From a virus (lineage: Duplodnaviria; Heunggongvirae; Uroviricota; Caudoviricetes), in the IMG/VR virus record IMGVR_UViG_2563366861_000002: 49,107 nucleotides of DNA. The stretch is one strand, 5' to 3'. Positions within the stretch are counted from its first letter, which is position 1, and every line of letters starts with the position of its first letter. Of this stretch, positions 4,136 through 48,822 are shown one piece after another. Under the pieces are notes generated by a model. It ran no database searches. It saw nothing but the letters and a program-made list of their open reading frames with translations, and had not been told where the DNA came from. Made by a program: the position numbers and the translations under genes.

Positions 4136-4416
4136 CCTTTTTGTATCGGACGTAAACGGGCCAGCATTGAAAGAATGCATATTTTATTTAATAGCTCCCG
4201 TTCGTGTTTTCTCTTGTTAATGGCATCTTCAGTAAATACAGGGTTACTGATATTGACACCAATTTCAAAACAACCTTCAGACGTATTAACGTTTGGTAAT
4301 AACGTTTCCATTATCGCGTCCTCAACAATGAATTTTGTGATGCGGTGCCTGGTGCCTCCAGGTGACGTTAACCAGTTAACAATTAACGCCGGATACAGAG
4401 AATCCACCCATAACAC
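4123..4416 (-). CDS. hypothetical protein
   Basis: 97-aa ORF in AT-rich early-left region; better RBS (GAGGA) precedes internal start METLLP (4311); function unknown. Confidence 0.3.
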   Translation of the reverse strand: MLWVDSLYPALIVNWLTSPGGTRHRITKFIVEDAIMETLLPNVNTSEGCFEIGVNISNPVFTEDAINKRKHERELLNKICILSMLARLRPIQKGCWQ

Positions 4417-4873
4417 TGTTTTTGGTTTTAACTGTTCCGCGTGCGCTCAGCCGCATTCACCACATCACAAAATTCACTTTAAAAAGGGCGGCAGAGCAGT
4501 CACGGAGTAAAACTGATACCGCCAAACGTCACCAGAAAATTGATAACAGAGGGCGTTGCAGCGGGGTTGTCACTTAAGCGTATGGTCAACCTGACAACCC
4601 GGTGTCCTCAACGGGGGAAGGAATAACCCCGCCATACTTACCGCCGCGCCATTTCGCGGATTGCCACAACCGGAAGCGCACGGTCGACGAAAATTTAACG
4701 ACAGGCTATCTATGAACCAGCTACCTCGCCGTGCGCTTTCGCGTTATGGTCTGACTTTTCAGGGAAATATCCTTTCAGTAAACTGTCAGTGCCGGATGCT
4801 CACCCGTGTCCGGCGCACGCACTCCACCTCACCCGTGGAGAACTCCTTAATCACCAACCCTCAGGAGGGTGAA

Positions 4874-5149: not shown

Positions 5150-5459
5150 TGCTTTTTGTTGCAAAGTAATTTTCAAGGGGTTCTATTCGAATCCCTTTCT
5201 TTTTCATTAACAAGCCAAACCCCTTATCAATGATGTCCATTAGATCCAGGAAGTATTTTTCATGTAAATCCTGGTTATCAGAGAGCTGCTTCTCTTCGTA
5301 CAGCCCGATAAAGGCTCGGCGTACGTTACCGGATATATTGTCGATGGTTTCTTTTTCTACGGTACTCAGGTCAAGAGTCGCCAGTTGAGAGCGAACCACA
5401 TTCGATGCCATTTCCTGGAATGGGACTGGTAAATCTTTAAATTCCATCGTCAACCTCAT
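5127..5459 (-). CDS. hypothetical protein (early-left operon)
   Basis: 110-aa ORF; start overlaps stop of upstream gene in ATGA arrangement (translational coupling). Confidence 0.5.
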   Translation of the reverse strand: MRLTMEFKDLPVPFQEMASNVVRSQLATLDLSTVEKETIDNISGNVRRAFIGLYEEKQLSDNQDLHEKYFLDLMDIIDKGFGLLMKKKGIRIEPLENYFATKSINSFDSK

Positions 5460-7263: not shown

Positions 7264-7285
7264 AAGCACGGTGTTCGGGGGTTTT

Positions 7286-8248
7286 ATGAGCAGCAAGCTT
7301 CATGGTCTTGTCTGGGAAGGGTGCGCCTTCACCGGCATGATCTTATCCAGGGTGGCGGTTATGGCCCGTCTTGCAGACTACAGCAATGACGAGGGCGTGT
7401 CATGGCCTGCCATTGAAACTATCCGGCGTCAGATCGGTGCAAGAAGTGAATCCACAGTGAAATCGGCTATTGCAGAACTGGCGAAAGAGGGCTGGCTGAC
7501 GAAGGAAGAGCGTAAGGTCGGTGGGCGTAATGTAAGCAATATCTATCGGCTTAATGTGGAAAAACTCGAAGCAGCTGCGGCGGCGGCGCGTGAGTCATAT
7601 AAACCGAAAAGAAAAATTAGCCCGGCAAAAAATGACCCGTTAACAGTTGACCCGTCAAATATTGACCCCTCAACGGTTGACCCGTCAAATTTTGATGGAT
7701 CAACTGTTGATAAAAAACTGCCGATTAGGGGGGCGATGATTGACCCCGATCCGTCAGTATTAAAACCTGATCCGTCAGATAAAAGATCTTCTTGTCCGGA
7801 CGCTTCGCAACCGGACCCGCAGACGGCTGAACAGGATTTTTTAACCCGACACCCTGACGCGGTTGTGTTCAGTGCGAAAAAACGCCAGTGGGGAAGTCAG
7901 GAAGATTTGGTGTGCGCACAGTGGATCTGGGGACGAATCGTGAGTCTTTACGAGCAGGCGGCCAGCGATGATGGCGAGATCACTAGACCGAAAGAACCCA
8001 ACTGGACAGCATGGGCCAATGACGTTCGCACAATGCGGATGCTGGATGGCAGAACTCACAGACAAATTTGTGAAATGTTTGGGCGTCTCCAGCGGGATTC
8101 GTTCTGGGTAAAAAACATCATGAGTCCGGCAAAACTCCGGGAAAAATGGGATGAACTGGTTATCCGCCTGGGGCGTTCGCCTGCGCAGCGTTGCGTGAAT
8201 CACATTTCTGAACCGGACACTGAAATTCCGCCGGGCTTCAGGGGGTAA
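7286..8248 (+). CDS. replication initiation protein (lambda O-like / YdaU-like, winged-helix N-terminus)
   Basis: ~320-aa ORF; N-terminal winged-helix-like region; contains tandem iterons within its coding sequence like lambda O. Confidence 0.75.
   Translation: MSSKLHGLVWEGCAFTGMILSRVAVMARLADYSNDEGVSWPAIETIRRQIGARSESTVKSAIAELAKEGWLTKEERKVGGRNVSNIYRLNVEKLEAAAAAARESYKPKRKISPAKNDPLTVDPSNIDPSTVDPSNFDGSTVDKKLPIRGAMIDPDPSVLKPDPSDKRSSCPDASQPDPQTAEQDFLTRHPDAVVFSAKKRQWGSQEDLVCAQWIWGRIVSLYEQAASDDGEITRPKEPNWTAWANDVRTMRMLDGRTHRQICEMFGRLQRDSFWVKNIMSPAKLREKWDELVIRLGRSPAQRCVNHISEPDTEIPPGFRG
7632..7706. repeat. iteron array (candidate replication origin) inside the O-like gene
   Basis: Five ~15-bp direct repeats: ATGACCCGTTAACAG, TTGACCCGTCAAATA, TTGACCCCTCAACGG, TTGACCCGTCAAATT, TTGATGGATCAACTG, followed by A-rich TTGATAAAAAACTG. 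Confidence 0.55.
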
Positions 8249-13365: not shown

Positions 13366-13740
13366 ATGCTCATAGATTTGGTTTTACCTTACCCGCCGAC
13401 GGTGAACACTTACTGGCGACGCCGTGGCAGCACATATTTTATCTCGGAGGAGGGAAAGCGTTATCGCCGGGCTGTGGCGCTTATTGTTCGCCAGCAGCGG
13501 CTGAAATTAAGCCTGTCCGGAAGGCTGGCGATAAAGGTGATTGCAGAGCCACCGGATAAGCGTCGTCGCGACCTGGACAATATTCTGAAAGCACCACTGG
13601 ATGCGCTGACGCATGCCGGACTTCTCATAGACGACGAGCAGTTTGATGAAATCAATATTGTGCGCGGTCAGCGCGTTCCTGGGGGGCGGCTGGGCGTGAA
13701 GATTTACCCCATAATGCTTGAAGGGCAGGTCAAAAAATGA
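13366..13740 (+). CDS. rusA: Holliday-junction resolvase RusA
   Basis: 124-aa ORF; PDKRRRDLDN and DALT...DD motifs match RusA; AGAGG RBS. Confidence 0.85.
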   Translation: MLIDLVLPYPPTVNTYWRRRGSTYFISEEGKRYRRAVALIVRQQRLKLSLSGRLAIKVIAEPPDKRRRDLDNILKAPLDALTHAGLLIDDEQFDEINIVRGQRVPGGRLGVKIYPIMLEGQVKK

Positions 13741-14558
13741 AACTGGAAGATTTACCGAAATACTACTCCCCAAAATCCCCCGGCCTGACTGATGCATCGG
13801 CCTCAACGTCGAAAGATGCGCTGAGTATCACTGATGTGATGGCCGCGCAGGGCATGACACAGAATCGGGCTGAGATGGGGTTTTCTGCGTTCCTTGGGAA
13901 AATGGGCATTAGTATGAATGACAGAGAGCGGGCAACAGAATTGCTGACAGAATATGCACTCAGTCGGTGTGATCGCGTGGCGGCGTTAAGAAAACTCCCG
14001 GCAGAAATAAAACCGGCAGTGATGCGTATTATGGCTTCGTATGCGTTTGAAGATTATGCCCGCAGCGCGGCGAGCAAAAAACAGTGCTCCTGCTGTCACG
14101 GAAACAAATTTATTGAAAGCGAGGTTTTTACAAACAAGATCCAGTATCCGGATGGTAAGCCGCCGGTATGGGCAAAGTGTACGAAAGGTGTGTATCCGTC
14201 TTACTGGGAAGAATGGAAAAAAGTCAGGGAGGTGGTAAAAGTTGCCTGTCCGGAGTGTGGCGGAAAGGGTGAGGTTTCCACCGCCTGTAAGGATTGCCGT
14301 GGGCGTGGTGTCGCCATTCATCGTGAAGAGTCGGTAAAACGTGGTATGCCTGTTATCAGAGACTGCCAGCGTTGTGGTGGTCGTGGCTGTGAAAGACTAC
14401 CATCAACGGAGGCATTTAATGCCATATGCAAAGTGACGAGTGCTATCACGCTTGATACGTGGAAAAAATCAGTGAAACGCTTTTACGATACGTTGGTGGT
14501 TCGGTTTGACATTGAAGAGGCATGGGCGGAGCGGCAGTTAAAGAGGGTAACGCGATAG
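13737..14558 (+). CDS. Q: late-gene antiterminator Q (lambda-Q family with Cys-rich insert)
   Basis: 273-aa ORF; N-terminal YSPKSP...DVMAAQGM and C-terminal FYDTLVV resemble lambda Q; followed by lambda-like pR'. Confidence 0.8.
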   Translation: MKLEDLPKYYSPKSPGLTDASASTSKDALSITDVMAAQGMTQNRAEMGFSAFLGKMGISMNDRERATELLTEYALSRCDRVAALRKLPAEIKPAVMRIMASYAFEDYARSAASKKQCSCCHGNKFIESEVFTNKIQYPDGKPPVWAKCTKGVYPSYWEEWKKVREVVKVACPECGGKGEVSTACKDCRGRGVAIHREESVKRGMPVIRDCQRCGGRGCERLPSTEAFNAICKVTSAITLDTWKKSVKRFYDTLVVRFDIEEAWAERQLKRVTR

Positions 14559-15132: not shown

Positions 15133-16182
15133 ATGCTTAATACTGTAAAAATATCCAGTTGTGAGTTAATCAACGCCGACTGCCTGGAATTTATCCGGTC
15201 GTTACCCGAAAATTCTGTTGACCTGATAGTCACGGACCCGCCGTACTTTAAAGTGAAGCCTGAGGGCTGGGATAACCAGTGGAAGGGCGACGATGATTAC
15301 CTGAAGTGGCTGGACCAGTGTCTGGCGCAGTTCTGGCGGGTGCTGAAACCTGCCGGAAGTCTTTACCTGTTCTGTGGTCATCGCCTGGCATCTGATATCG
15401 AAATCATGATGCGTGAACGCTTCAGTGTGCTGAACCATATTATCTGGGCGAAGCCGTCCGGACGCTGGAACGGATGCAACAAGGAAAGCCTGCGGGCGTA
15501 TTTCCCCGCCACAGAGCGCATTCTGCTCGCGGAACATTATCAGGGGCCGTATCGTCCGAAAGATGCCGGGTATGCGGCGAAGGGCAGTGCACTGAAACAG
15601 CATGTGATGGCCCCGCTGATTTCTTACTTTCGTGATGCGCGCGCGGCCCTGGGGATAACGGCAAAACAGATTGCAGATGCCACAGGAAAGAAAAACATGG
15701 TGTCGCACTGGTTCAGTGCCAGTCAGTGGCAGCTACCGAACGAAAGCGATTATCTGAAATTACAGTCGCTGTTTGCCCGGGTGGCAGAAGAGAAACATCA
15801 GCGCGGTGAACTGGAAAAGCCCCACCACCAGCTGGTGGATACGTATACGTCACTGAACCGGCAGTATGTGGAGCTGCAGAGTGAATATAAGCATCTGCGG
15901 CGGTATTTTGGTGTGACGGCGCAGGTGCCGTACACGGATGTGTGGACACATAAACCGGTGCAGTTCTATCCCGGGAAACATCCGTGCGAAAAACCGGCAG
16001 AAATGCTGCAGCAGATAATCAGCGCAAGCAGTCGTCCGGGTGACCTGGTTGCAGATTTTTTTATGGGCTCAGGTTCAACGGTAAAAGCGGCACTGGCGCT
16101 CGGGCGTCGTGCGATTGGCGTTGAGCTGGAGACCGGACGTTTTGAGCAGACAGTCAGGGAAGTTCAGGATTTAATCGTTTGA
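15133..16182 (+). CDS. orphan DNA methyltransferase (beta-class amino-MTase, DPPY motif)
   Basis: 349-aa ORF; motif IV VTDPPYF near N-terminus and motif I FFMGSGST near C-terminus; no adjacent restriction endonuclease. Confidence 0.85.
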   Translation: MLNTVKISSCELINADCLEFIRSLPENSVDLIVTDPPYFKVKPEGWDNQWKGDDDYLKWLDQCLAQFWRVLKPAGSLYLFCGHRLASDIEIMMRERFSVLNHIIWAKPSGRWNGCNKESLRAYFPATERILLAEHYQGPYRPKDAGYAAKGSALKQHVMAPLISYFRDARAALGITAKQIADATGKKNMVSHWFSASQWQLPNESDYLKLQSLFARVAEEKHQRGELEKPHHQLVDTYTSLNRQYVELQSEYKHLRRYFGVTAQVPYTDVWTHKPVQFYPGKHPCEKPAEMLQQIISASSRPGDLVADFFMGSGSTVKAALALGRRAIGVELETGRFEQTVREVQDLIV

Positions 16183-16231: not shown

Positions 16232-16307
16232 GGCCCTTTAGCTCAGTGGTGAGAGCGAGCGACTCATAATCGCCAGGTCGCTGGTTCAAATCCAGCAAGG
16301 GCCACCA
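16232..16307 (+). tRNA. tRNA-Ile (anticodon CAT, ileX-like)
   Basis: 76-nt cloverleaf GGCCCTT...AAGGGCC-A-CCA; anticodon loop CTCATAA; near-identical to E. coli tRNA-Ile2 as I recall it. Confidence 0.85.
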
Positions 16308-16316
16308 TATCACATA

Positions 16317-16393
16317 CCACCATTAGCTCATCGGGATAGAGCGCCAGCCTTCGAAGCTGGTTGCGCGGGGTTCGAGTTCTCGATGGCGGTCCA
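16317..16393 (+). tRNA. tRNA-Arg (anticodon TCG), imperfect stems
   Basis: D-arm GCTC-ATCGGGATA-GAGC, anticodon stem CCAGC/GCTGG with loop CTTCGAA, T-loop TTCGAGT, 3' CCA; one acceptor mismatch and wobble-rich T-stem. Confidence 0.55.
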
Positions 16394-16407
16394 TTTATCG
16401 GTATTCT

Positions 16408-16455
16408 GCGTTGTTAGCTCAGCCGGACAGAGCAATTGCCTTCTAAGCAGCTGTG
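16408..16455 (+). pseudogene. truncated tRNA-Arg-like fragment (5' half only)
   Basis: GCGTTGT-TA-GCTC-AGCCGGACA-GAGC and anticodon arm with CTTCTAA loop (TCT), but no T-arm or matching 3' acceptor strand downstream. Confidence 0.35.
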
Positions 16456-16644
16456 GTTGCACTCCTGTTGTTTCTGGTGGTGATGGTGGACTTCAGCAGC
16501 CGGATAATGTCGGTGCTGTCTGATGGTGTTTTGGTGGCGGGTGTGTGGTTGTTGCTTTCCCGTTGCTGAAAAAGAAAGCATCAGGCGATTAGCAGGGTAT
16601 CAGTTACACGTTGAAATTTTTAAATACCTCACAATTCCACAGCT

Positions 16645-16848
16645 TGATGATTGTCTGGCTGCCGGAGAATTTGTTAAAAATTACATCGCATGGTGAATCC
16701 CCCTCAGCGGCGGGGCATCTGGCAAAGTGTATGATCCAGAGAACATGCAAATTCAGTAGACAGGCTGAATTTACCGGGAGGCCCCTGGCACCATGCGACA
16801 GACAGAAATTAGGCTATACTTCAGCCCCTCTCCGGAGGGGCTTTTCTG
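16645..16848 (+). ncRNA. candidate structured small RNA / small transcription unit, copy A
   Basis: Promoter-like TTGTCT-17-TAAAAA, conserved GCATGGTG...CACCATGC segments, GC hairpin, and terminator AGCCCCTC-TCCG-GAGGGGCT + TTTTCTG; paralog at 17115-17308. Confidence 0.35.
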
Positions 16849-17114
16849 TGCAGGATGTGTCACAGTTTCCTGAATTCTGAGTACTGTCCTGTTACTCAGG
16901 GTGCTATATTTTCTGACGTGATGAAAGTCTGCCGGAAGGCGGAACGTATCGGAAATGACCCAGTAGAGAAAACGTTGACTCAGATACCGATGCTGAGTTA
17001 CCGGGAAACCGGCATCACATGACCGCTATCCTTCCAGGCTCGCTCCGGCGGGCCTTTTTACTGCAGAAAACAGTTTTCCCGTAAAATGCCACGTTGCTCA
17101 TAATTCAGGCTGGC

Positions 17115-17308
17115 GATTATTGTCTGGCCGGCGGGAAGTTTGTTAAAAAATTTCGCATGGTGAATCCCCCTGTGCGGAGGGGTAATCAGCGAGTAGGTAT
17201 ATGGGATAATCGCGGATTCAGGTGCTGGTACTGAATTCACCGGGAGGCACCCGGCACCATGCAATGGCACATAGCGCCACTCTCCAGCCCCTCTCCGGAG
17301 GGGCTGTT
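17115..17308 (+). ncRNA. candidate structured small RNA / small transcription unit, copy B
   Basis: Same architecture as copy A; internal hairpin differs by compensatory changes (CCCCTCAGCGGCGGGG vs CCCCCTGTGCGGAGGGG). Confidence 0.35.
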
Positions 17309-17340
17309 TATATTGATTTTGTCAGATGTGAGTAAACTCC

Positions 17341-17676
17341 TTATGGACTTTGTTGTTTTAGCCCATAAGGACATATTTGCAGAGTGCAACGGTTATTAAA
17401 GCATTCATTCAATACGTTATCTGTATTTGTAGGGCATTCCTGGCTGTTTTTGATTAAATTCCAGAATGTTTTATTGAATGGTACTACGTTGTAAATGGTT
17501 ACAGGTAGCACTTTGTTATTGAGCATGATGCCTGTGTGAGTCAGTGTAAATATACTTTCAGGAGGTAAGAAAGCATCCGATTGATACCAGATTATTAATT
17601 TTATTTTACTCCATATGACTGAAAAAGATATTCCGCATGATGGCTGGATAACTGTATCAATCACAATCCACTTCAT
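17341..17676 (-). CDS. hypothetical protein (very AT-rich ORF)
   Basis: 111-aa ORF in AT-rich segment upstream of esterase gene; no homology recognised; may be spurious. Confidence 0.25.
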
Positions 17677-17936
17677 TTAGTTTCCTTGTTTATGCCTTGC
17701 TGGTGATGTTCTGAAAAGTATAAATGATATTTTTGATTGTAAACCATAGAGCAGAATTATTTTTCTGATGTTGTTTATTGTTTATTTAAATGCAGGGTGG
17801 TTTATATCTCGTCTTGTAGTTTATCCATGCATATCTGCTTGATGATGAGGTTTTTATTTAAGGTATGGTTTTGTGTTTTTTCTGTATTACATGTCAGGTA
17901 TTTTAAAGAATCATTTTTCAGATGGTGGAAAGAACC

Positions 17937-21938: not shown

Positions 21939-22559
21939 ATGAAAGATCAAGATGTTAGGTTCGCGGTGCATCATAAGCTTTTGAAAGAATCGCATTTAGA
22001 TCCAGACTGCCTTGTGGTCGATGAATTTTCCATATCCCTTGGCGCCAGTAGAGCAGACATTGCTGTAATAAATGGTGTTATACACGGGTACGAGCTCAAA
22101 AGTGAATATGACTCTTTGGAGCGTTTGCCTCTTCAAATCAAGCATTATTCTTCTGTAATGGACAAGGTTACTCTTGTCGTAGCTGAGAAACACCTTGAGG
22201 GAGCATTAAAGTTAATCCCAGGTTGGTGGGGCGTTAAAACGGTTTCTGTTGGGCCAAAAGGCGCCATTCTTATAAAGCACATGCGTGGAGAAAAGCTTAA
22301 TCGAAACCATGACACATTGATGCTCGCTCAATTGCTTTGGAAAGATGAATGTATCGACGTACTTGAACGATGGGGCTATTCCAAAGGAATCAAAAGCAAG
22401 CCCCGATTTGAGTTATGGAATATTATTGCGGAAAATATTCCAATAGCGAATCTCAGGCCTGAAGTCAGAACAGCCTTAAAGAAACGCGTAGGCTGGAAAG
22501 TTAAGGCTTGGCAGGCTGAGTCTGCGCCAACCAATAAAGCTGTCTCACGACTAACGTAA
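21939..22559 (+). CDS. predicted PD-(D/E)xK-fold nuclease-like protein (uncharacterised accessory gene)
   Basis: 206-aa ORF, AT-rich; own -10 TATAAT (21905-21910) and AAGGAG RBS; motif VVDEF...RADIAVINGVIHGYELK fits D...D...ExK nuclease core. Confidence 0.7.
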   Translation: MKDQDVRFAVHHKLLKESHLDPDCLVVDEFSISLGASRADIAVINGVIHGYELKSEYDSLERLPLQIKHYSSVMDKVTLVVAEKHLEGALKLIPGWWGVKTVSVGPKGAILIKHMRGEKLNRNHDTLMLAQLLWKDECIDVLERWGYSKGIKSKPRFELWNIIAENIPIANLRPEVRTALKKRVGWKVKAWQAESAPTNKAVSRLT

Positions 22560-23568
22560 TATGGTGCGTATGTGCAACTTTACGCCATTCTTTAGAGCCG
22601 CCAGATTTGTTAGCGCCTAATGATCTTTGGTAAATGTAATCATCCCCCCAACTAAATTTGGAGCCAAAGACTTGATACTCTGGCGAACTAACAAGGGTAG
22701 TACATAAGTTTTTAGTTTGGCCCCATCCATTTCCTTTAACTGCGGTACCTTTTACAAAGATCCATGAGGTATCGTTCGAATATCTCACTGAGACATACTG
22801 AGACATGAAGCGTGGGTCTACGCTCGTAATGGTAGAGCTAGCGGTGGGATAATCACTAAAACTTGGCGTTCTTCCATTGCTAAAATTCTGTACTACGTAC
22901 ATCCAAAGATCGTATTCATGGCGCGGAATATGATGAACTTGATGTTGCGGTATCCCTGCCTGTGATGCCGGGTATGCGGTTGAAGATAAAATCAAGTTTC
23001 TCCACGGAGCTTGGCCTGATAATGTGTTGACCATGCTTAATGCTTGTTGTTTTAAACTATCAGTTGCGTTTTGAATATCTCCAAAATCAATGATTACATC
23101 AATTAAACTAGGATGAATATTTAAGTGGTTAACCAGACTTGTGAATTGGTGCCATGTCTGGGGGGTGATAGACATAGCGAGCCCATTGATTAAGTTGCGT
23201 TGAACAGCATGTATATAGTTTGTTGAATATGCGGGAGAAACAACAGGGATAATTTCCTTACCATTTACTCTAGCATCTTGGATACACATATCTAGAGGAT
23301 GATGGCGGCTCGAACCATGTTTATCTAAATATTTAACATCCAGCAAAACAGGACGATTGGCTTTCCAGGATGCCGCAAGGTTAATACCGAAGTCAGATAA
23401 GTAAGAACTCAAACTCTTCTTGTAGCATTCGTTTTCATAATCCCAGTCTATGTCTGGAATGGTAATGATCGGAGTAAAACCAGAGAGCGTAGTTTGATCT
23501 AAAAGCATCAGAGATTCATATTCAGCAGGCTTCCATTTCAGCTGTGGATAATATTGATGTTGACTCAT
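22501..23568 (-). CDS. uncharacterised 355-aa protein, convergent partner of the nuclease-like gene
   Basis: AT-rich ORF with AAGGAG RBS and promoter-like upstream region; 3' end overlaps 21939-22559 by 59 bp on opposite strand; no catalytic motif recognised by eye. Confidence 0.7.
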   Translation of the reverse strand: MSQHQYYPQLKWKPAEYESLMLLDQTTLSGFTPIITIPDIDWDYENECYKKSLSSYLSDFGINLAASWKANRPVLLDVKYLDKHGSSRHHPLDMCIQDARVNGKEIIPVVSPAYSTNYIHAVQRNLINGLAMSITPQTWHQFTSLVNHLNIHPSLIDVIIDFGDIQNATDSLKQQALSMVNTLSGQAPWRNLILSSTAYPASQAGIPQHQVHHIPRHEYDLWMYVVQNFSNGRTPSFSDYPTASSTITSVDPRFMSQYVSVRYSNDTSWIFVKGTAVKGNGWGQTKNLCTTLVSSPEYQVFGSKFSWGDDYIYQRSLGANKSGGSKEWRKVAHTHHITLVVRQLYWLAQTQPAKP

Positions 23569-44213: not shown

Positions 44214-47189
44214 ATGACAGTAAAAATTTCTGGCGTGCTTAAAGATGGCACAGGAAAACCAGTACAGAACTGCACCATTGTGCTGAAGGCCAGACGAACC
44301 AGCAGCACGGTGGTGGTGAACACGGTGGCCTCTGAAAATCCGGATGAAGCCGGACGTTACAGCATGGATGTTGAGCATGGTCAGTACAGCGTCACCCTGC
44401 TGGTTGAAGGTTTTCCGCCTTCACATGCCGGGACCATTACCGTCTATGAAGGTTCCAGACCAGGTACGCTGAATGATTTTCTCGGTGCCATGACGGAGGA
44501 TGATGTCCGACCGGAGGCACTGCGCCGCTTTGAGCAGATGGTGGAAGAGGTGTCACGTAACGCCTCCGCGGTTGCACAGAATACGGCAGCCGCGAAAAAA
44601 TCAGCCAGCGATGCCAGTGCATCAGCCAGCGAGGCGGCAACTCATGCAACCGATGCTGCAGCCTCAGCACGTGCCGCCAGCACGTCAGCCGGACAGGCCG
44701 CGTCGTCGGCTCAGTCAGCGTCTTCCAGCGCAGGAACGGCATCGACAAAGGCCCGTGAAGCAGCAAAAAGTGCTGCTGCTGCAGAGTCATCAAAAAGCGC
44801 GGCAGTTACCAGCGCCAGTGCCGCGAAAACGTCAGAAACGAATGCCGCAGCGTCACAACAATCAGCAGCCACTTCTGCATCCACCGCGACCACGAAAGCG
44901 TCAGAAGCAGCCACTTCAGCACGGGATGCGTCGGCTTCAAAAGAGGCGGCAAAATCATCAGAAACGAACGCAGCCTCGAGCGCCAGCAGCGCAGCTTCCT
45001 CGGCAACGGCGGCAGCAAATTCTGCGAAGGCGGCAAAAACGTCCGAGACGAACGCCAGGTCTTCTGAAACGGCAGCGGGACAGAGCGCCTCAGCTGCGGC
45101 AGACTCAAAAACAGCGGCTGCATTATCTGCCAGTGCCGCGTCAACAAGTGCCGGGCAGGCCTCAGCCAGTGCCACCGCCGCCGGAAAATCGGCAGAAAGT
45201 GCTGCATCGTCTGCTTCAACAGCCACAACGAAGGCTGGCGAAGCCGCTGTACAGGCCAGCGCAGCAGCGAGGTCTGCTTCCGCAGCGAAGACATCCGAGA
45301 CGAACGCGAAAGCGTCGGAAACCAGCGCAGAATCCTCAAAAACGGCTGCCGCATCGTCCGCCAGTTCGGCGGCGTCATCGGCATCATCTGCGTCTGCTTC
45401 AAAAGATGAGGCGACCAGACAGGCGTCAGCAGCAAAGGGCAGCGCCACGACGGCATCCACGAAGGCGACAGAGGCAGCTGGCAGTGCGACGGCGGCAGCT
45501 CAGAGCAAAAGTACGGCGGAATCCGCGGCAACGCGCGCTGAGACAGCGGCAAAACGGGCAGAGGATATTGCATCCGCCGTGGCGCTTGAGGATGCGAGCA
45601 CGACGAAAAAGGGGATAGTTCAGCTCAGCAGTGCGACTAACAGCACTTCCGAGTCACTGGCGGCAACGCCAAAAGCCGTTAAGGCCGCGTATGAGCTGGC
45701 TAACGGGAAATACACCGCACAGGATGCAACGACAGCACAGAAAGGGATAGTTCAGCTTAGCAACGCGACCAACAGCACATCTGAAATGCTGGCGGCAACG
45801 CCAAAGTCGGTAAAGGCAGCCTATGACCTTGCTAACGGGAAATATACTGCTCAGGACGCTACGACAGCACAAAAAGGAATTGTCCAGCTCAGTAGTGCAA
45901 CCAACAGCGCATCTGAAACGCTTGCCGCGACACCGAAAGCAGTGAAAGCAGCTAATGATAATGCGAATGGTCGGGTACCTTCTGCCCGTAAGGTGAATGG
46001 TAAGGCGCTTTCAGCGGATATAACACTGACGCCGAAAGATATTGGTACGCTTAACTCAACAACAATGTCATTCAGCGGTGGTGCTGGTTGGTTCAAATTA
46101 GCAACGGTAACCATGCCACAGGCGAGTTCTGTTGTTTCAATTACGTTGATTGGTGGTGCGGGATTTAACGTGGGGTCACCTCAACAGGCAGGTATATCTG
46201 AACTTGTTTTGCGTGCAGGTAATGGTAATCCGAAGGGGATTACTGGTGCTTTATGGCAGCGCACATCGACAGGGTTTACAAATTTTGCCTGGGTCAATAC
46301 ATCTGGTGATACTTACGATATTTACGTTGCAATCGGAAATTATGCGACTGGTGTAAATATTCAATGGGATTATACCAGTAATGCCAGCGTGACGATTCAT
46401 ACGTCACCAGCATATTCTGCTAATAAGCCGGAAGGGTTAACGGACGGTACAGTTTATTCACTCTATACGCCATCAGAGCAGTTTTATCCGCCTGGCGCAC
46501 CAATCCCGTGGCCATCAGATACCGTTCCGTCTGGCTATGCCCTGATGCAGGGGCAGACTTTTGACAAATCTGCATACCCGAAACTTGCAGCCGCTTATCC
46601 GTCAGGCGTGATCCCTGATATGCGTGGCTGGACGATTAAGGGCAAACCCGCCAGTGGTCGTGCCGTATTGTCTCAGGAACAGGACGGCATTAAATCGCAC
46701 ACCCACAGCGCCAGCGCATCCAGTACGGATTTGGGGACGAAAAACACATCGTCGTTTGATTACGGAACCAAATCCACGAATAACACCGGGGCGCATACGC
46801 ACAGTCTGAGTGGCTCTACGGGGTCTGCCGGTGATCATACTCATGGTAATGGTATTCGTTGGCCAGGAGGCGGCGGTTCTGCGTTAGCATTTTATGATGG
46901 CGGTGGGTTCACTTATGTCCAGGATTCACAGTATCAAGTAAGCCCGGGGACTTCTTCCCGTAGATCGTATTATCAACGTATTCAGACACAGTCAGCAGGT
47001 GCTCATACCCACTCGCTGTCTGGTACTGCAGCAAGTTCTGGCGCACATGCACATACTGTAGGTATTGGTGCGCATACGCACTCCGTTGCGATTGGTTCAC
47101 ATGGACACACCATCACCGTTAACGCTGCTGGTAACGCGGAAAACACCGTCAAAAACATCGCATTTAACTATATTGTGAGGCTTGCATAA
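44214..47189 (+). CDS. stf: side tail fiber protein Stf
   Basis: 991 aa; N-terminus near-identical to lambda Stf ([20 protein letters not shown]); Ala/Ser-rich low-complexity region, three ~42-aa tandem fiber repeats, C-terminal His-rich receptor-binding region. Confidence 0.9.
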
Positions 47190-47773
47190 TGGCATTCAGA
47201 ATGAGTGAACAAGCACGGACCATAAAAATTTATAATCTGCTGGCCGGAACTAATGAATTTATTGGTGAAGGTGACGCATATATTCCGCCTCATACAGGTC
47301 TGCCAGCAAACAGTACCGATATTGCACCACCAGATATTCCTGCTGGCTTTGTGGCTGTTTTCAACAGTGATGAGGCATCGTGGCATCTCGTTGAAGACCA
47401 TCGGGGTAAAACGGTTTATGACGTAGCGTCAGGGGACGAGTTATTTATTTCTGAACTCGGTCCGTTACCGGAAAATGTTACCTGGTTATCGCCGGAAGGG
47501 GAGTTTCAGAAGTGGAACGGCACAGCCTGGGTGAAGGATACGGAAGCAGAAAAAATGTTCCGGATCCGGGAGGCGGAAGAAACAAAAAACAACCTGATGC
47601 AGGTAGCCAGTGAGCATATTGCGCCGCTTCAGGATGCTGCAGATCTGGAAATTGCAACGGAGGAAGAAACCTCATTGCTGGAAGCCTGGAAAAAGTATCG
47701 GGTGTTGCTGAACCGTGTTGATACATCAACTGCACCTGATATTGAGTGGCCTACGAACCCTGTCAGGGAGTAA
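47189..47773 (+). CDS. tfa: tail fiber assembly protein Tfa
   Basis: 194 aa; [17 protein letters not shown]... matches lambda Tfa; start overlaps stf stop. Confidence 0.85.
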
Positions 47774-48552: not shown

Positions 48553-48822
48553 ATGCTGCCGCAGCATAGCGATATTGAAATAGCCTGGTATGCTTCGATA
48601 CAGCAGGAGCCGAATGGCTGGAAGACCGTCACCACACAGTTCTACATCCAGGAATTCAGTGAGTATATTGCGCCACTGCAGGATGCTGTAGATCTGGAAA
48701 TCGCAACGGAGGAAGAAAGATCGTTGCTGGAGGCATGGAATAAATATCGGGTATTGTTGAATCGTGTTGATACATCAACTGCACCTGATATTGAGTGGCC
48801 TGCAAATCCTGTCAGGGAGTAA
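48553..48822 (+). pseudogene. tfa-like fragment (duplicated 3' portion of tail fiber assembly gene)
   Basis: 89-aa ORF whose C-terminal ~50 aa repeat the tfa C-terminus; DNA about 205 bp similar to 47617-47822 including downstream hairpin. Confidence 0.5.

Follow-up and report, generated by a model that had tools for sequence, protein, structure and literature searches.

What occupies the roughly 0.9 kb (16408-17340) that separates the tRNA genes from the esterase gene in the viral record IMGVR_UViG_2563366861_000002, at the position where Shiga toxin (Stx) phages carry stxAB? The record, analysed here over its entire 49,107 nucleotides (the window), is a lambdoid, Qin-like Escherichia coli prophage that also carries DicF, dicB and hokD/sok. 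RefSeq leaves this interval empty or mis-called, with a 38-aa coding sequence (CDS) and a pseudo-CDS antisense to a putative small RNA (sRNA) gene. The answer that we favour, with a probability of about 0.8, is that the interval holds three head-to-tail sRNA units of the STnc100 family: two canonical copies (U1 and U2) flanking a divergent middle copy (UM). A preliminary description of this DNA had proposed candidate sRNAs under structural selection here, and the proposal has gained substance: the units fall in the STnc100 family, relatives of which were shown by others to be transcribed and bound by Hfq.

U1 (16687-16845, + strand) and U2 (17154-17310, +) match the Rfam STnc100 model RF02076 over its full length (model positions 1-206), U1 at 16658-16851 with 138 bits (E = 2e-30) and U2 at 17127-17315 with 132.5 bits (E = 5e-29). 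Both E-values refer to the whole window, and both scores exceed the gathering score of 47 bits. The two ~200-bp paralogous units reported in the preliminary description are thus real. They are 74% identical and built alike. In U1, a closing helix (16688-16695 with 16789-16796) encloses hairpin P1 (16699-16715), a UUCAG hairpin (16749-16772) and a CCGGG hairpin (16774-16788), followed by a linker (16797-16822) and a terminator hairpin (16823-16842) with its U run. The corresponding parts of U2 are the closing helix (17155-17162 with 17255-17262), P1 (17166-17182), the UUCAG hairpin (17214-17238), the CCGGG hairpin (17240-17254), the linker (17263-17284) and the terminator (17285-17306). The predicted minimum free energy (MFE) is -62.5 kcal/mol for U1 and -69.8 kcal/mol for U2, each with a z-score of -3.1.

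Several features that had been noticed by eye can now be placed in this architecture. An 8-nt segment and its reverse complement are indeed present in each copy (GCATGGTG at 16688-16695 and 17155-17162; CACCATGC at 16789-16796 and 17255-17262), although their starts are ~100 nt apart and not ~80. The terminators, described as identical, share 20 nt of their hairpins (16823-16842 and 17286-17305). Compensatory changes had been assigned to an internal G+C hairpin, but the CCGGG/CCYGG hairpin differs between the copies by G-C to G-U only; a two-sided change is found instead in the UUCAG hairpin, as A-U in U1 (16749/16772) versus G-C in U2 (17214/17238). On the opposite strand, RefSeq records a 'hypothetical protein' pseudo-CDS antisense to U2 (17145-17270, -), and another antisense to PasD2, a relative of these RNAs, in strain E2348/69 (5198-5439, -, of our locus L002). 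Annotation on the strand opposite the STnc100/PasD sRNAs seems to have seeded a spurious protein family.

The DNA between U1 and U2 had been described as a third terminator-ended unit with a 33-codon open reading frame (ORF). The unit exists, but its reading as an ORF-bearing element fails, and it is better described as a third, divergent paralogue. UM (16916-17059, +) comprises a closing helix (GUGAUG, 16918-16923, with CAUCAC, 17013-17018), P1 (16928-16943), a CUCAG hairpin (16977-16999), a CCGG hairpin (17001-17012), a C/U-rich linker (17019-17035; CGCUAUCCUUCC) and a terminator (17036-17055) followed by U5. Its homology to the canonical copies can be seen by eye (CUGAGUUACCGGGAAACCGGCAUCAC in UM versus CUGAAUUCACCGGGAGGCACCCGGCACCAU in U2), and its GUGAUG/CAUCAC closing helix differs from AUGGUG/CACCAU by two double-sided changes. 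The z-score of its MFE fold is -2.6. At a permissive threshold, the Rfam STnc100 model aligns with UM over its full length (16887-17062) with 30 bits, corresponding to an E-value of 2.3e-4 in a 1.3-kb search and 0.0088 window-wide. Model R2, which was built from 62 canonical 5' domains only, with UM left out, and was searched unfiltered, gave 31.5 bits (E = 3e-5) for UM of the window, 41.7 bits (E = 1.3e-7) for a ~86-91% identical variant of UM and 40.5 bits (E = 2.5e-7) for PasD2 of enteropathogenic E. coli (EPEC), the best noise match having 13 bits (E = 0.52). With this model, the variant alignment and the fold in agreement, UM is filed here as a divergent relative of STnc100 and not as a member by the Rfam criterion.

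UM occurs as two sequence variants, and 672 of 5426 complete E. coli genomes (~12%) carry it; in every viral contig that has it, canonical copies flank it on both sides. Among 40 sampled records none annotates it, save for one CDS beneath a partial match; annotation by the Rfam threshold misses the whole subfamily. Within the 33-codon ORF (16921-17022) the two variants differ at 8 positions, 7 of them in P1, where pairing is kept by exchanges of U-A to C-G, U-G to U-A and C-G to U-G. Read as codons, the differences amount to five non-synonymous and two synonymous changes. No Shine-Dalgarno sequence precedes the ATG, and neither this ORF nor the 70-aa and 89-aa ORFs that overlap the units has a Pfam match. 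Because the changes preserve P1 pairing, and given the missing Shine-Dalgarno sequence and Pfam match, we conclude from sequence comparison that the 33-codon ORF is not a gene.

The MFE folds of the three units, PasD2 and the copy in phage 933W share one architecture (z-scores of -2.5 to -3.3): an 8-9-bp closing helix containing P1, a variable inner region, a UUCAG-type hairpin and a CCGGG hairpin, then a 17-26-nt linker and the terminator. The CCGGG hairpin, which is absent in PasD2, abuts the 3' strand of the closing helix. To the units of the window, E2348/69 and 933W we added 120 IMG/VR loci found with a P1 pattern, giving an alignment of 65 distinct 5' domains. Across these 65 sequences, which are related to one another, the 25 base pairs of the four helices are paired in 99.2% of cells, and nine pairs show double-sided changes. 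None of 500 shuffled alignments reached any of these measures, and sliding the partners by 1-3 columns lowered pairing to 33-45%. P1 and the CCGGG hairpin are nearly invariant and carry little information, so the covariation signal comes from the closing helix and the UUCAG hairpin. The unpaired positions of the 5' domain are also strongly conserved. Since the double-sided changes keep pairing while both the shuffled and the slid controls fail, the units are under selection for RNA structure. A separate scan of genome contigs with a pattern of 14 specified bases returned chance matches only, in unrelated phyla (L004-L123).

Each unit appears to have its own promoter. U1 and U2 are preceded by the same promoter-like element (16651-16680 and 17120-17149, +), consisting of TTGTCT (16651-16656 and 17120-17125) and the extended -10 sequence TGtTAAAAA (16672-16680 and 17141-17149). 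In 42 distinct upstream regions, TTG(T/C)CT, a spacer of 17-18 nt and TGtTAAAAA are conserved at a fixed distance from the closing helix, which places the +1 position at, or 1-2 bases before, the first G of GCAUGGUG; for U1 this predicts a start at G16688 or just before it. UM has an extended -10, TGcTATATT (16902-16910, +), at the same distance from the start as in the canonical copies, and it is conserved between the two variants while the sequence upstream diverges. The 5' boundary of PasD2 mapped by sequencing of ligated interacting RNAs (RIL-seq; PMC8550237) lies at E2348/69 position 741157, 3 nt before GCAUGG, in agreement with the predicted geometry. Because the predicted +1 falls at the closing helix, the first ~30 positions of the RF02076 model probably represent promoter and not RNA, as judged from their conservation. 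The outer 3-bp helix of the Rfam model (positions 14-16 with 156-158) falls in the inferred -10 region and was not counted as RNA. At the other end, terminator-like sites at 16823-16842, 17036-17055 and 17285-17306 (all +) place three such sites within 650 bp upstream of the lysis region. The promoter, start and modular build of the family should help in interpreting disease associations of stx2-adjacent STnc100 (PMC12711010).

A further conserved motif, CTCACAATTCAG, lies ~55-60 nt before the predicted start of most STnc100 copies (16600-16650 and 17090-17120 in the window). CUCACA is also the reported target motif of the PasD seed UGUGAG. The motif may serve as an activator site or for pairing within a read-through late transcript.

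The relatives of these units are well documented. STnc100 is also known as EcOnc27 in O157 Sakai and as sRNA103 in EDL933, the two being the same RNA (PMC7873438; PMC12711010). In eight Sakai prophages, Tree et al. (2014) showed that sRNAs crosslinked to Hfq are encoded at the "moron" site 3' of PR'; one of these is EcOnc27, which lies after stx2B and is convergent with AsxR (PMC4104026), and its Hfq binding rests on cross-linking and analysis of cDNAs (Hfq-CRAC; PMC4104026; PMC7873438). In Stx2 phages such as 933W, STnc100 lies 75 nt after stx2B; it has been found in outer-membrane vesicles (PMC12370729), and in EDL933 eleven STnc100 copies are listed with RNA-seq reads, one of them confirmed by Northern blot (PMC5331693). 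When sRNA103 is overexpressed, the fimZ and espA transcripts increase (PMC7873438; PMC12711010), and stx2-adjacent STnc100 variants have been statistically linked to disease severity (PMC12711010). PasD1 and PasD2 are abundant and form Hfq-dependent chimeras with many mRNAs through a UGUGAG seed just before the terminator (PMC8550237). PasD and STnc100 have been assigned a common ancestor, with Pas copies dispersed and not tandem, those of pasD being at least 74 kb apart (bioRxiv 10.64898/2026.05.13.724894).

U1 and U2 share with STnc100/EcOnc27/sRNA103 the closing helix, the P1, UUCAG and CCGGG hairpins, the linker, the terminator, the promoter geometry and the slot in the prophage. Unlike the STnc100 of Stx2 phages, however, the window has three units head to tail instead of one facing a convergent sRNA of the AgvB/AsxR type; its linkers, the putative seeds, differ, it has no stx, and UM scores below the Rfam threshold. 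PasD1 and PasD2 of EPEC E2348/69 (Pearl Mizrahi 2021; Zhu, Shabalina and Storz 2026) occupy the same slot between DUF3927 and a SASA-family esterase and resemble the window units in the closing helix, in P1, in a transcript that begins at the closing helix and in having a variable linker ahead of the terminator, and the score of PasD2 is near that of UM. They differ in lacking the CCGGG hairpin and in carrying the UGUGAG seed; TGTGAG occurs in none of the three window linkers, and blastn aligns PasD with the canonical copies over only 35-36 nt at 83%. As a side observation in the E2348/69 PP2 locus (L002), two adjacent PasA-like units are apparent by eye past the esterase gene (7270-7480, -), each with a promoter-like TTGACA and a GCCAGC...GCTGGC terminator.

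Members of the STnc100/PasD family can stand in head-to-tail arrays in which all putative seeds differ. The AgvB/AsxR dyads (Tree et al. 2014) are likewise prophage-borne, terminator-ended sRNAs at the same cargo site past PR', with a conserved and a variable part. They differ in being 51-60 nt long, on the opposite strand, and in having the conserved part at the 3' end and the variable part at the 5' end. No AgvB or AsxR match was found in 16395-17700 at E-values up to 10, whereas both were recovered from 933W by the same method. Adjacent paralogous sRNAs with a common scaffold and diverged pairing regions are also represented by OmrA/OmrB, PrrF1/PrrF2 and Qrr, which are chromosomal core-genome genes that share seeds. 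In the window, by contrast, the scaffold is 5', the putative seeds all differ, and the units are 74% and ~58% identical.

A mechanism can be proposed in which the three units act independently, each with a sigma-70 promoter with extended -10, a closing helix around a ~105-nt multi-hairpin 5' domain, a linker and a terminator. By analogy with the relatives, three primary transcripts of ~145-160 nt would be made in the lysogen. The 5' domain would serve as a stable scaffold that locks the 5' end in the closing helix and so protects it from 5'-end-dependent decay, while the terminator hairpins and U tails would bind Hfq. The three different linkers would then be seeds that pair, aided by Hfq, with different host or phage mRNAs. 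For these three copies we regard such seed pairing as slightly favoured over its absence, on the strength of the relatives. The three terminators may in addition shield the esterase and lysis genes from transcription starting at the tRNA promoter and the unit promoters until Q-modified polymerase reads through.

The array itself bears on how the units arose. We compared 149 units from the window, E2348/69, 933W and the viral loci, taking as tail the first 45 nt past the closing helix. They fall into 15 inner-region classes and 16 tail classes that combine freely: the U2 inner class occurs with eight different tails, and the U2 tail, the commonest type, with five different inner classes. The U1 tail resembles that of the Stx2-phage copy (ACAGA.AUUAGGC.AUAC), and the C/U-rich linker of UM is a type by itself. 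Reassortment thus treats 5' domains and 3' tails as separate modules. Arrays of two to four units also occur elsewhere (four units in L127, two each in L128 and L181). The largest seen is that of the IMG/VR contig L127 (2324-3352, -), with four head-to-tail STnc100-family domains in ~1 kb, and in a second type of array (L130 and others) the order is unchanged and a domain of the copy 2 type is in first position. Since domains and tails recombine and varied arrays exist elsewhere, the triad looks to have been assembled by recombination among prophages and not by recent duplication. The family and its location were already established; neither the head-to-tail triad nor the middle subfamily below threshold was found described in the literature, so that the new details are the triad, the divergent unannotated UM, the mapped tRNA/DUF3927 junction described below, the revised RNA start and a related domain next to dicF.

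This domain lies in the dicF-dicB spacer of the same window (4338-4467, -), right behind the DicF terminator, and stops ~27 nt short of the dicB start codon. It scores 49 bits with model R1 and 45.9 bits with R2, both trained on sets without it, and a permissive whole-window scan with the Rfam STnc100 model gave 38.7 bits (4279-4488, -), below threshold. Its closing helix is 21 bp long, its fold has a z-score of -5.3, and its CCUGG/CCAGG hairpin is a compensatory version of CCGGG/CCCGG. The domain is also present in the Qin prophage of K-12 MG1655 (44.4 and 41.7 bits; L244 1954-2083). It follows DicF in 115 of 115 assessable IMG/VR DicF loci (44 distinct sequences), with dicB or another ORF next, and we found no paper that describes it. 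RNase III cleavage just past DicF would have fitted the 21-bp helix, but the mapped site of the dicBF transcript is upstream of DicF and yields a 190-nt species, so that this helix is not that site.

Because a homologous domain fills the dicF-dicB spacer, the 5' domain may be portable and do more than stabilise an sRNA. The ~105-130-nt domain might even work autonomously as a structured RNA module, for instance as a signal for processing or for the binding of a protein, though we hold this only tentatively and think it rather doubtful. If it were true, lambdoid prophages would use one RNA module in two contexts: it would form the body of cargo-site sRNAs, whether these stand singly or in arrays with up to four units, and it would be the dicB mRNA leader. 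The dicF-dicB homologue would in any case offer a handle in K-12 on the role of the conserved domain, next to a gene for a cell-division inhibitor.

A number of points weigh against the proposal of three seed-pairing sRNAs. Expression, Hfq binding and targets are known for relatives alone. UM stays under the Rfam curated threshold, with 30 versus 47 bits. A consensus promoter scan called none of the proposed promoters, whose -35 boxes are weak, and the U tracts after the U1 and U2 terminators are short (UUUU and UGUUUAU). The set used for the covariation analysis was collected by the P1 pattern and is therefore biased toward canonical copies. Finally, the conserved and elaborate 5' domain exceeds what a stabilising hairpin would need, and its dicF-dicB homologue has no terminator of its own, so that the domain may have a function beyond the base-pairing model.

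A rival reading that builds on the dicF-dicB homologue takes the units as cis-acting leaders of the late operon, similar to attenuators or riboswitches: the 5' domain would sense a ligand or protein and thereby set whether polymerase halts at the terminator of the unit or goes on into the esterase and lysis genes, and the terminated products would pass for sRNAs. A homologous domain without its own terminator does precede dicB and other ORFs, the unpaired positions of the domain are strongly conserved, and all units are co-oriented with the late operon and upstream of nanS-p. Yet each unit has its own conserved promoter-like element, and arrays contain two to four units with a terminator in each. 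The esterase gene is also separated from the units by an opposite-strand IraM-like gene here and by a convergent sRNA gene between STnc100 and nanS-p in 933W. Moreover, the 3' tails reassort regardless of the sequence downstream, the PasD linker forms Hfq-dependent chimeras with many mRNAs in trans, and no unit matches a cis-regulatory family of Rfam. Inspection by eye revealed no alternative pairing conserved across tail types; pairing of the P1 3' strand with the terminator 5' strand is possible in CCCCUC-type terminators and in 933W and absent in PasD2 and both UM variants, and was not counted as evidence. We consider a leader function improbable.

Slightly less probable still is that the units act at the level of DNA or transcription, as insulating terminator cassettes or homology patches for the exchange of cargo, their RNA having no regulatory role. 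The three intrinsic terminators in 650 bp directly before the lysis region would fit such a role, as would the shuffling of modules at the conserved closing-helix region and the mosaic nature of the site, which has a tRNA/DUF3927 junction here, another junction in mEp460_ev081 and stx in 933W. It does not account for the four helices with compensatory changes, of which three lie well away from the terminator, or for relatives that are abundant, Hfq-bound and have mapped partners, and a terminator needs neither a conserved upstream domain of 105 nt nor its own promoter. That the repeats are decayed protein-coding sequence, as the RefSeq pseudo-CDS over U2 and PasD2 and the ORFs of 30-89 codons overlapping the units might suggest, we reject as very improbable: the overlapping ORFs lack Pfam matches, copy lengths vary in steps of 1-2 nt (107, 109, 111, 112, 113 and so on) and not in multiples of three, and variation follows base pairing and not codon position, with very strong covariance-model matches. 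The reading as three STnc100-family sRNA units is therefore retained.

Upstream of the units, the tRNA cluster records how this stretch was rearranged. Two tRNAs are intact, one with a CAU anticodon of the ileZ type (16232-16307, +; detected by ARAGORN, which labels it Met, and by Rfam, and named tRNA-Ile by RefSeq and the 933W record) and a tRNA-Arg (UCG) of the argN type (16317-16393, +; ARAGORN, Rfam and RefSeq). The third had been described as a truncated tRNA-Arg with a TCT anticodon, and it is one: from 16408 onward neither ARAGORN nor the Rfam tRNA model calls a tRNA, and alignment with 933W reveals only nucleotides 1-43 of argO (UCU; 16408-16450, +), with one difference, in the anticodon loop. 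This stub keeps the 5' strand of the acceptor, the D arm, and the 5' strand, loop and first 3 nt of the 3' strand of the anticodon stem, and lacks the T arm and the 3' acceptor. Similarity to 933W argO ends after "GCA", inside the 3' strand of the anticodon stem, and megablast homology to ~290 Stx-type phages stops at 16449. The recombination junction that had been suspected near 16455 is thereby confirmed and mapped to 16450/16451.

What follows is the remnant of a gene for a small DUF3927 membrane protein (16451-16569, +). It aligns with a full-length gene (locus L186) from about codon 9, so that the first ~8-9 codons are missing; a 1-nt deletion shifts its C-terminal frame, and Pfam PF13064 covers only profile positions 11-39 of 53, short of a full-length match with an intact start. 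Because of this partial match, the lost 5' codons and the deletion, the 38-aa CDS of RefSeq (16453-16569, GTG start) is most likely a remnant that by chance keeps an in-frame GTG. Illegitimate recombination would have fused nucleotide 43 of argO to about codon 9 of the DUF3927 gene, so that a defunct tRNA stub and a defunct small ORF would occupy the place that stx2AB has in Stx2 phages. The 933W ileZ-argN-argO cluster has the same order and spacing and a near-identical sequence up to argO nucleotide 43; in the window argO is cut in the anticodon stem and the DUF3927 remnant replaces the argO terminator and stx2AB. In mEp460_ev081, an intact argO precedes ~0.5 kb of other DNA, then a DUF3927 piece that is truncated in another way and a copy of STnc100. 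Compared with mEp460_ev081 and 933W, the window prophage has lost the stretch from argO to DUF3927.

The wider gene order was read from RefSeq at a 100% identical locus in E. coli AST198. It comprises RusA, a Q-type antiterminator (window 13737-14558), a small hypothetical gene, a DNA methyltransferase (15133-16182), tRNA-Ile, tRNA-Arg, the 38-aa "DUF3927 family protein" (16453-16569), the minus-strand pseudo-CDS (~17145-17270), an IraM-like gene (17341-17676, minus), a SASA-family esterase, holin, YdfR, lysozyme and Rz. Together with 933W, in which argO, stx2A, stx2B, STnc100 (207.7 bits), AsxR on the opposite strand and nanS-p follow one another, this bears out both the synteny in the preliminary description (Q, methylase, tRNAs, the region, the IraM-like gene, SASA esterase, holin) and its equation of the locus with the stxAB position, which in Stx2 phages is taken by stx2AB. 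In the window prophage stx is absent from the slot, and no convincing intact protein gene was found within this region. The position between Q/PR' and the lysis genes is common to the STnc100 copies of the window, 933W and E2348/69 PP2. The region is a cargo ("moron") slot between the Q antiterminator and the lysis genes, filled with RNA genes. Since its argO, DUF3927 and stx contents differ among the window, mEp460_ev081 and 933W, the interval is, judged by these alignments, a mosaic cargo slot. A 1.55-kb query around the region matches 3336 of 5426 complete E. coli genomes, at a median of 2 and a maximum of 16 places per genome, and 741 genomes at a coverage of at least 80%.

Other possible cargo lies nearby. 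The moron slot holds a second cargo gene, the IraM-like anti-adapter gene (17341-17676, -), which separates the array from the esterase gene; its ORF, named by RefSeq, has no Pfam or PADLOC match. Further away are two IS009 RNA matches (47532-47730 and 48576-48779, both +; 223.8 bits, and 112.5 bits just under threshold) and a weak isrG-like match (44962-45210, -; 33.6 bits). IS009 and isrG-like RNAs are reported to flank PasB in other strains; by blastn, PasB itself and PasA are absent from the window. Immediately past the lysis cassette, two convergent genes overlap (21939-22559, +, and 22501-23568, -), named sce7726 family and beta family protein by RefSeq. Among PADLOC models, the pair matches 'cll' (E = 4e-31) and 'PD-Lambda-2_C' / 'beta' (E = 4e-32), and it may be anti-phage defence cargo.

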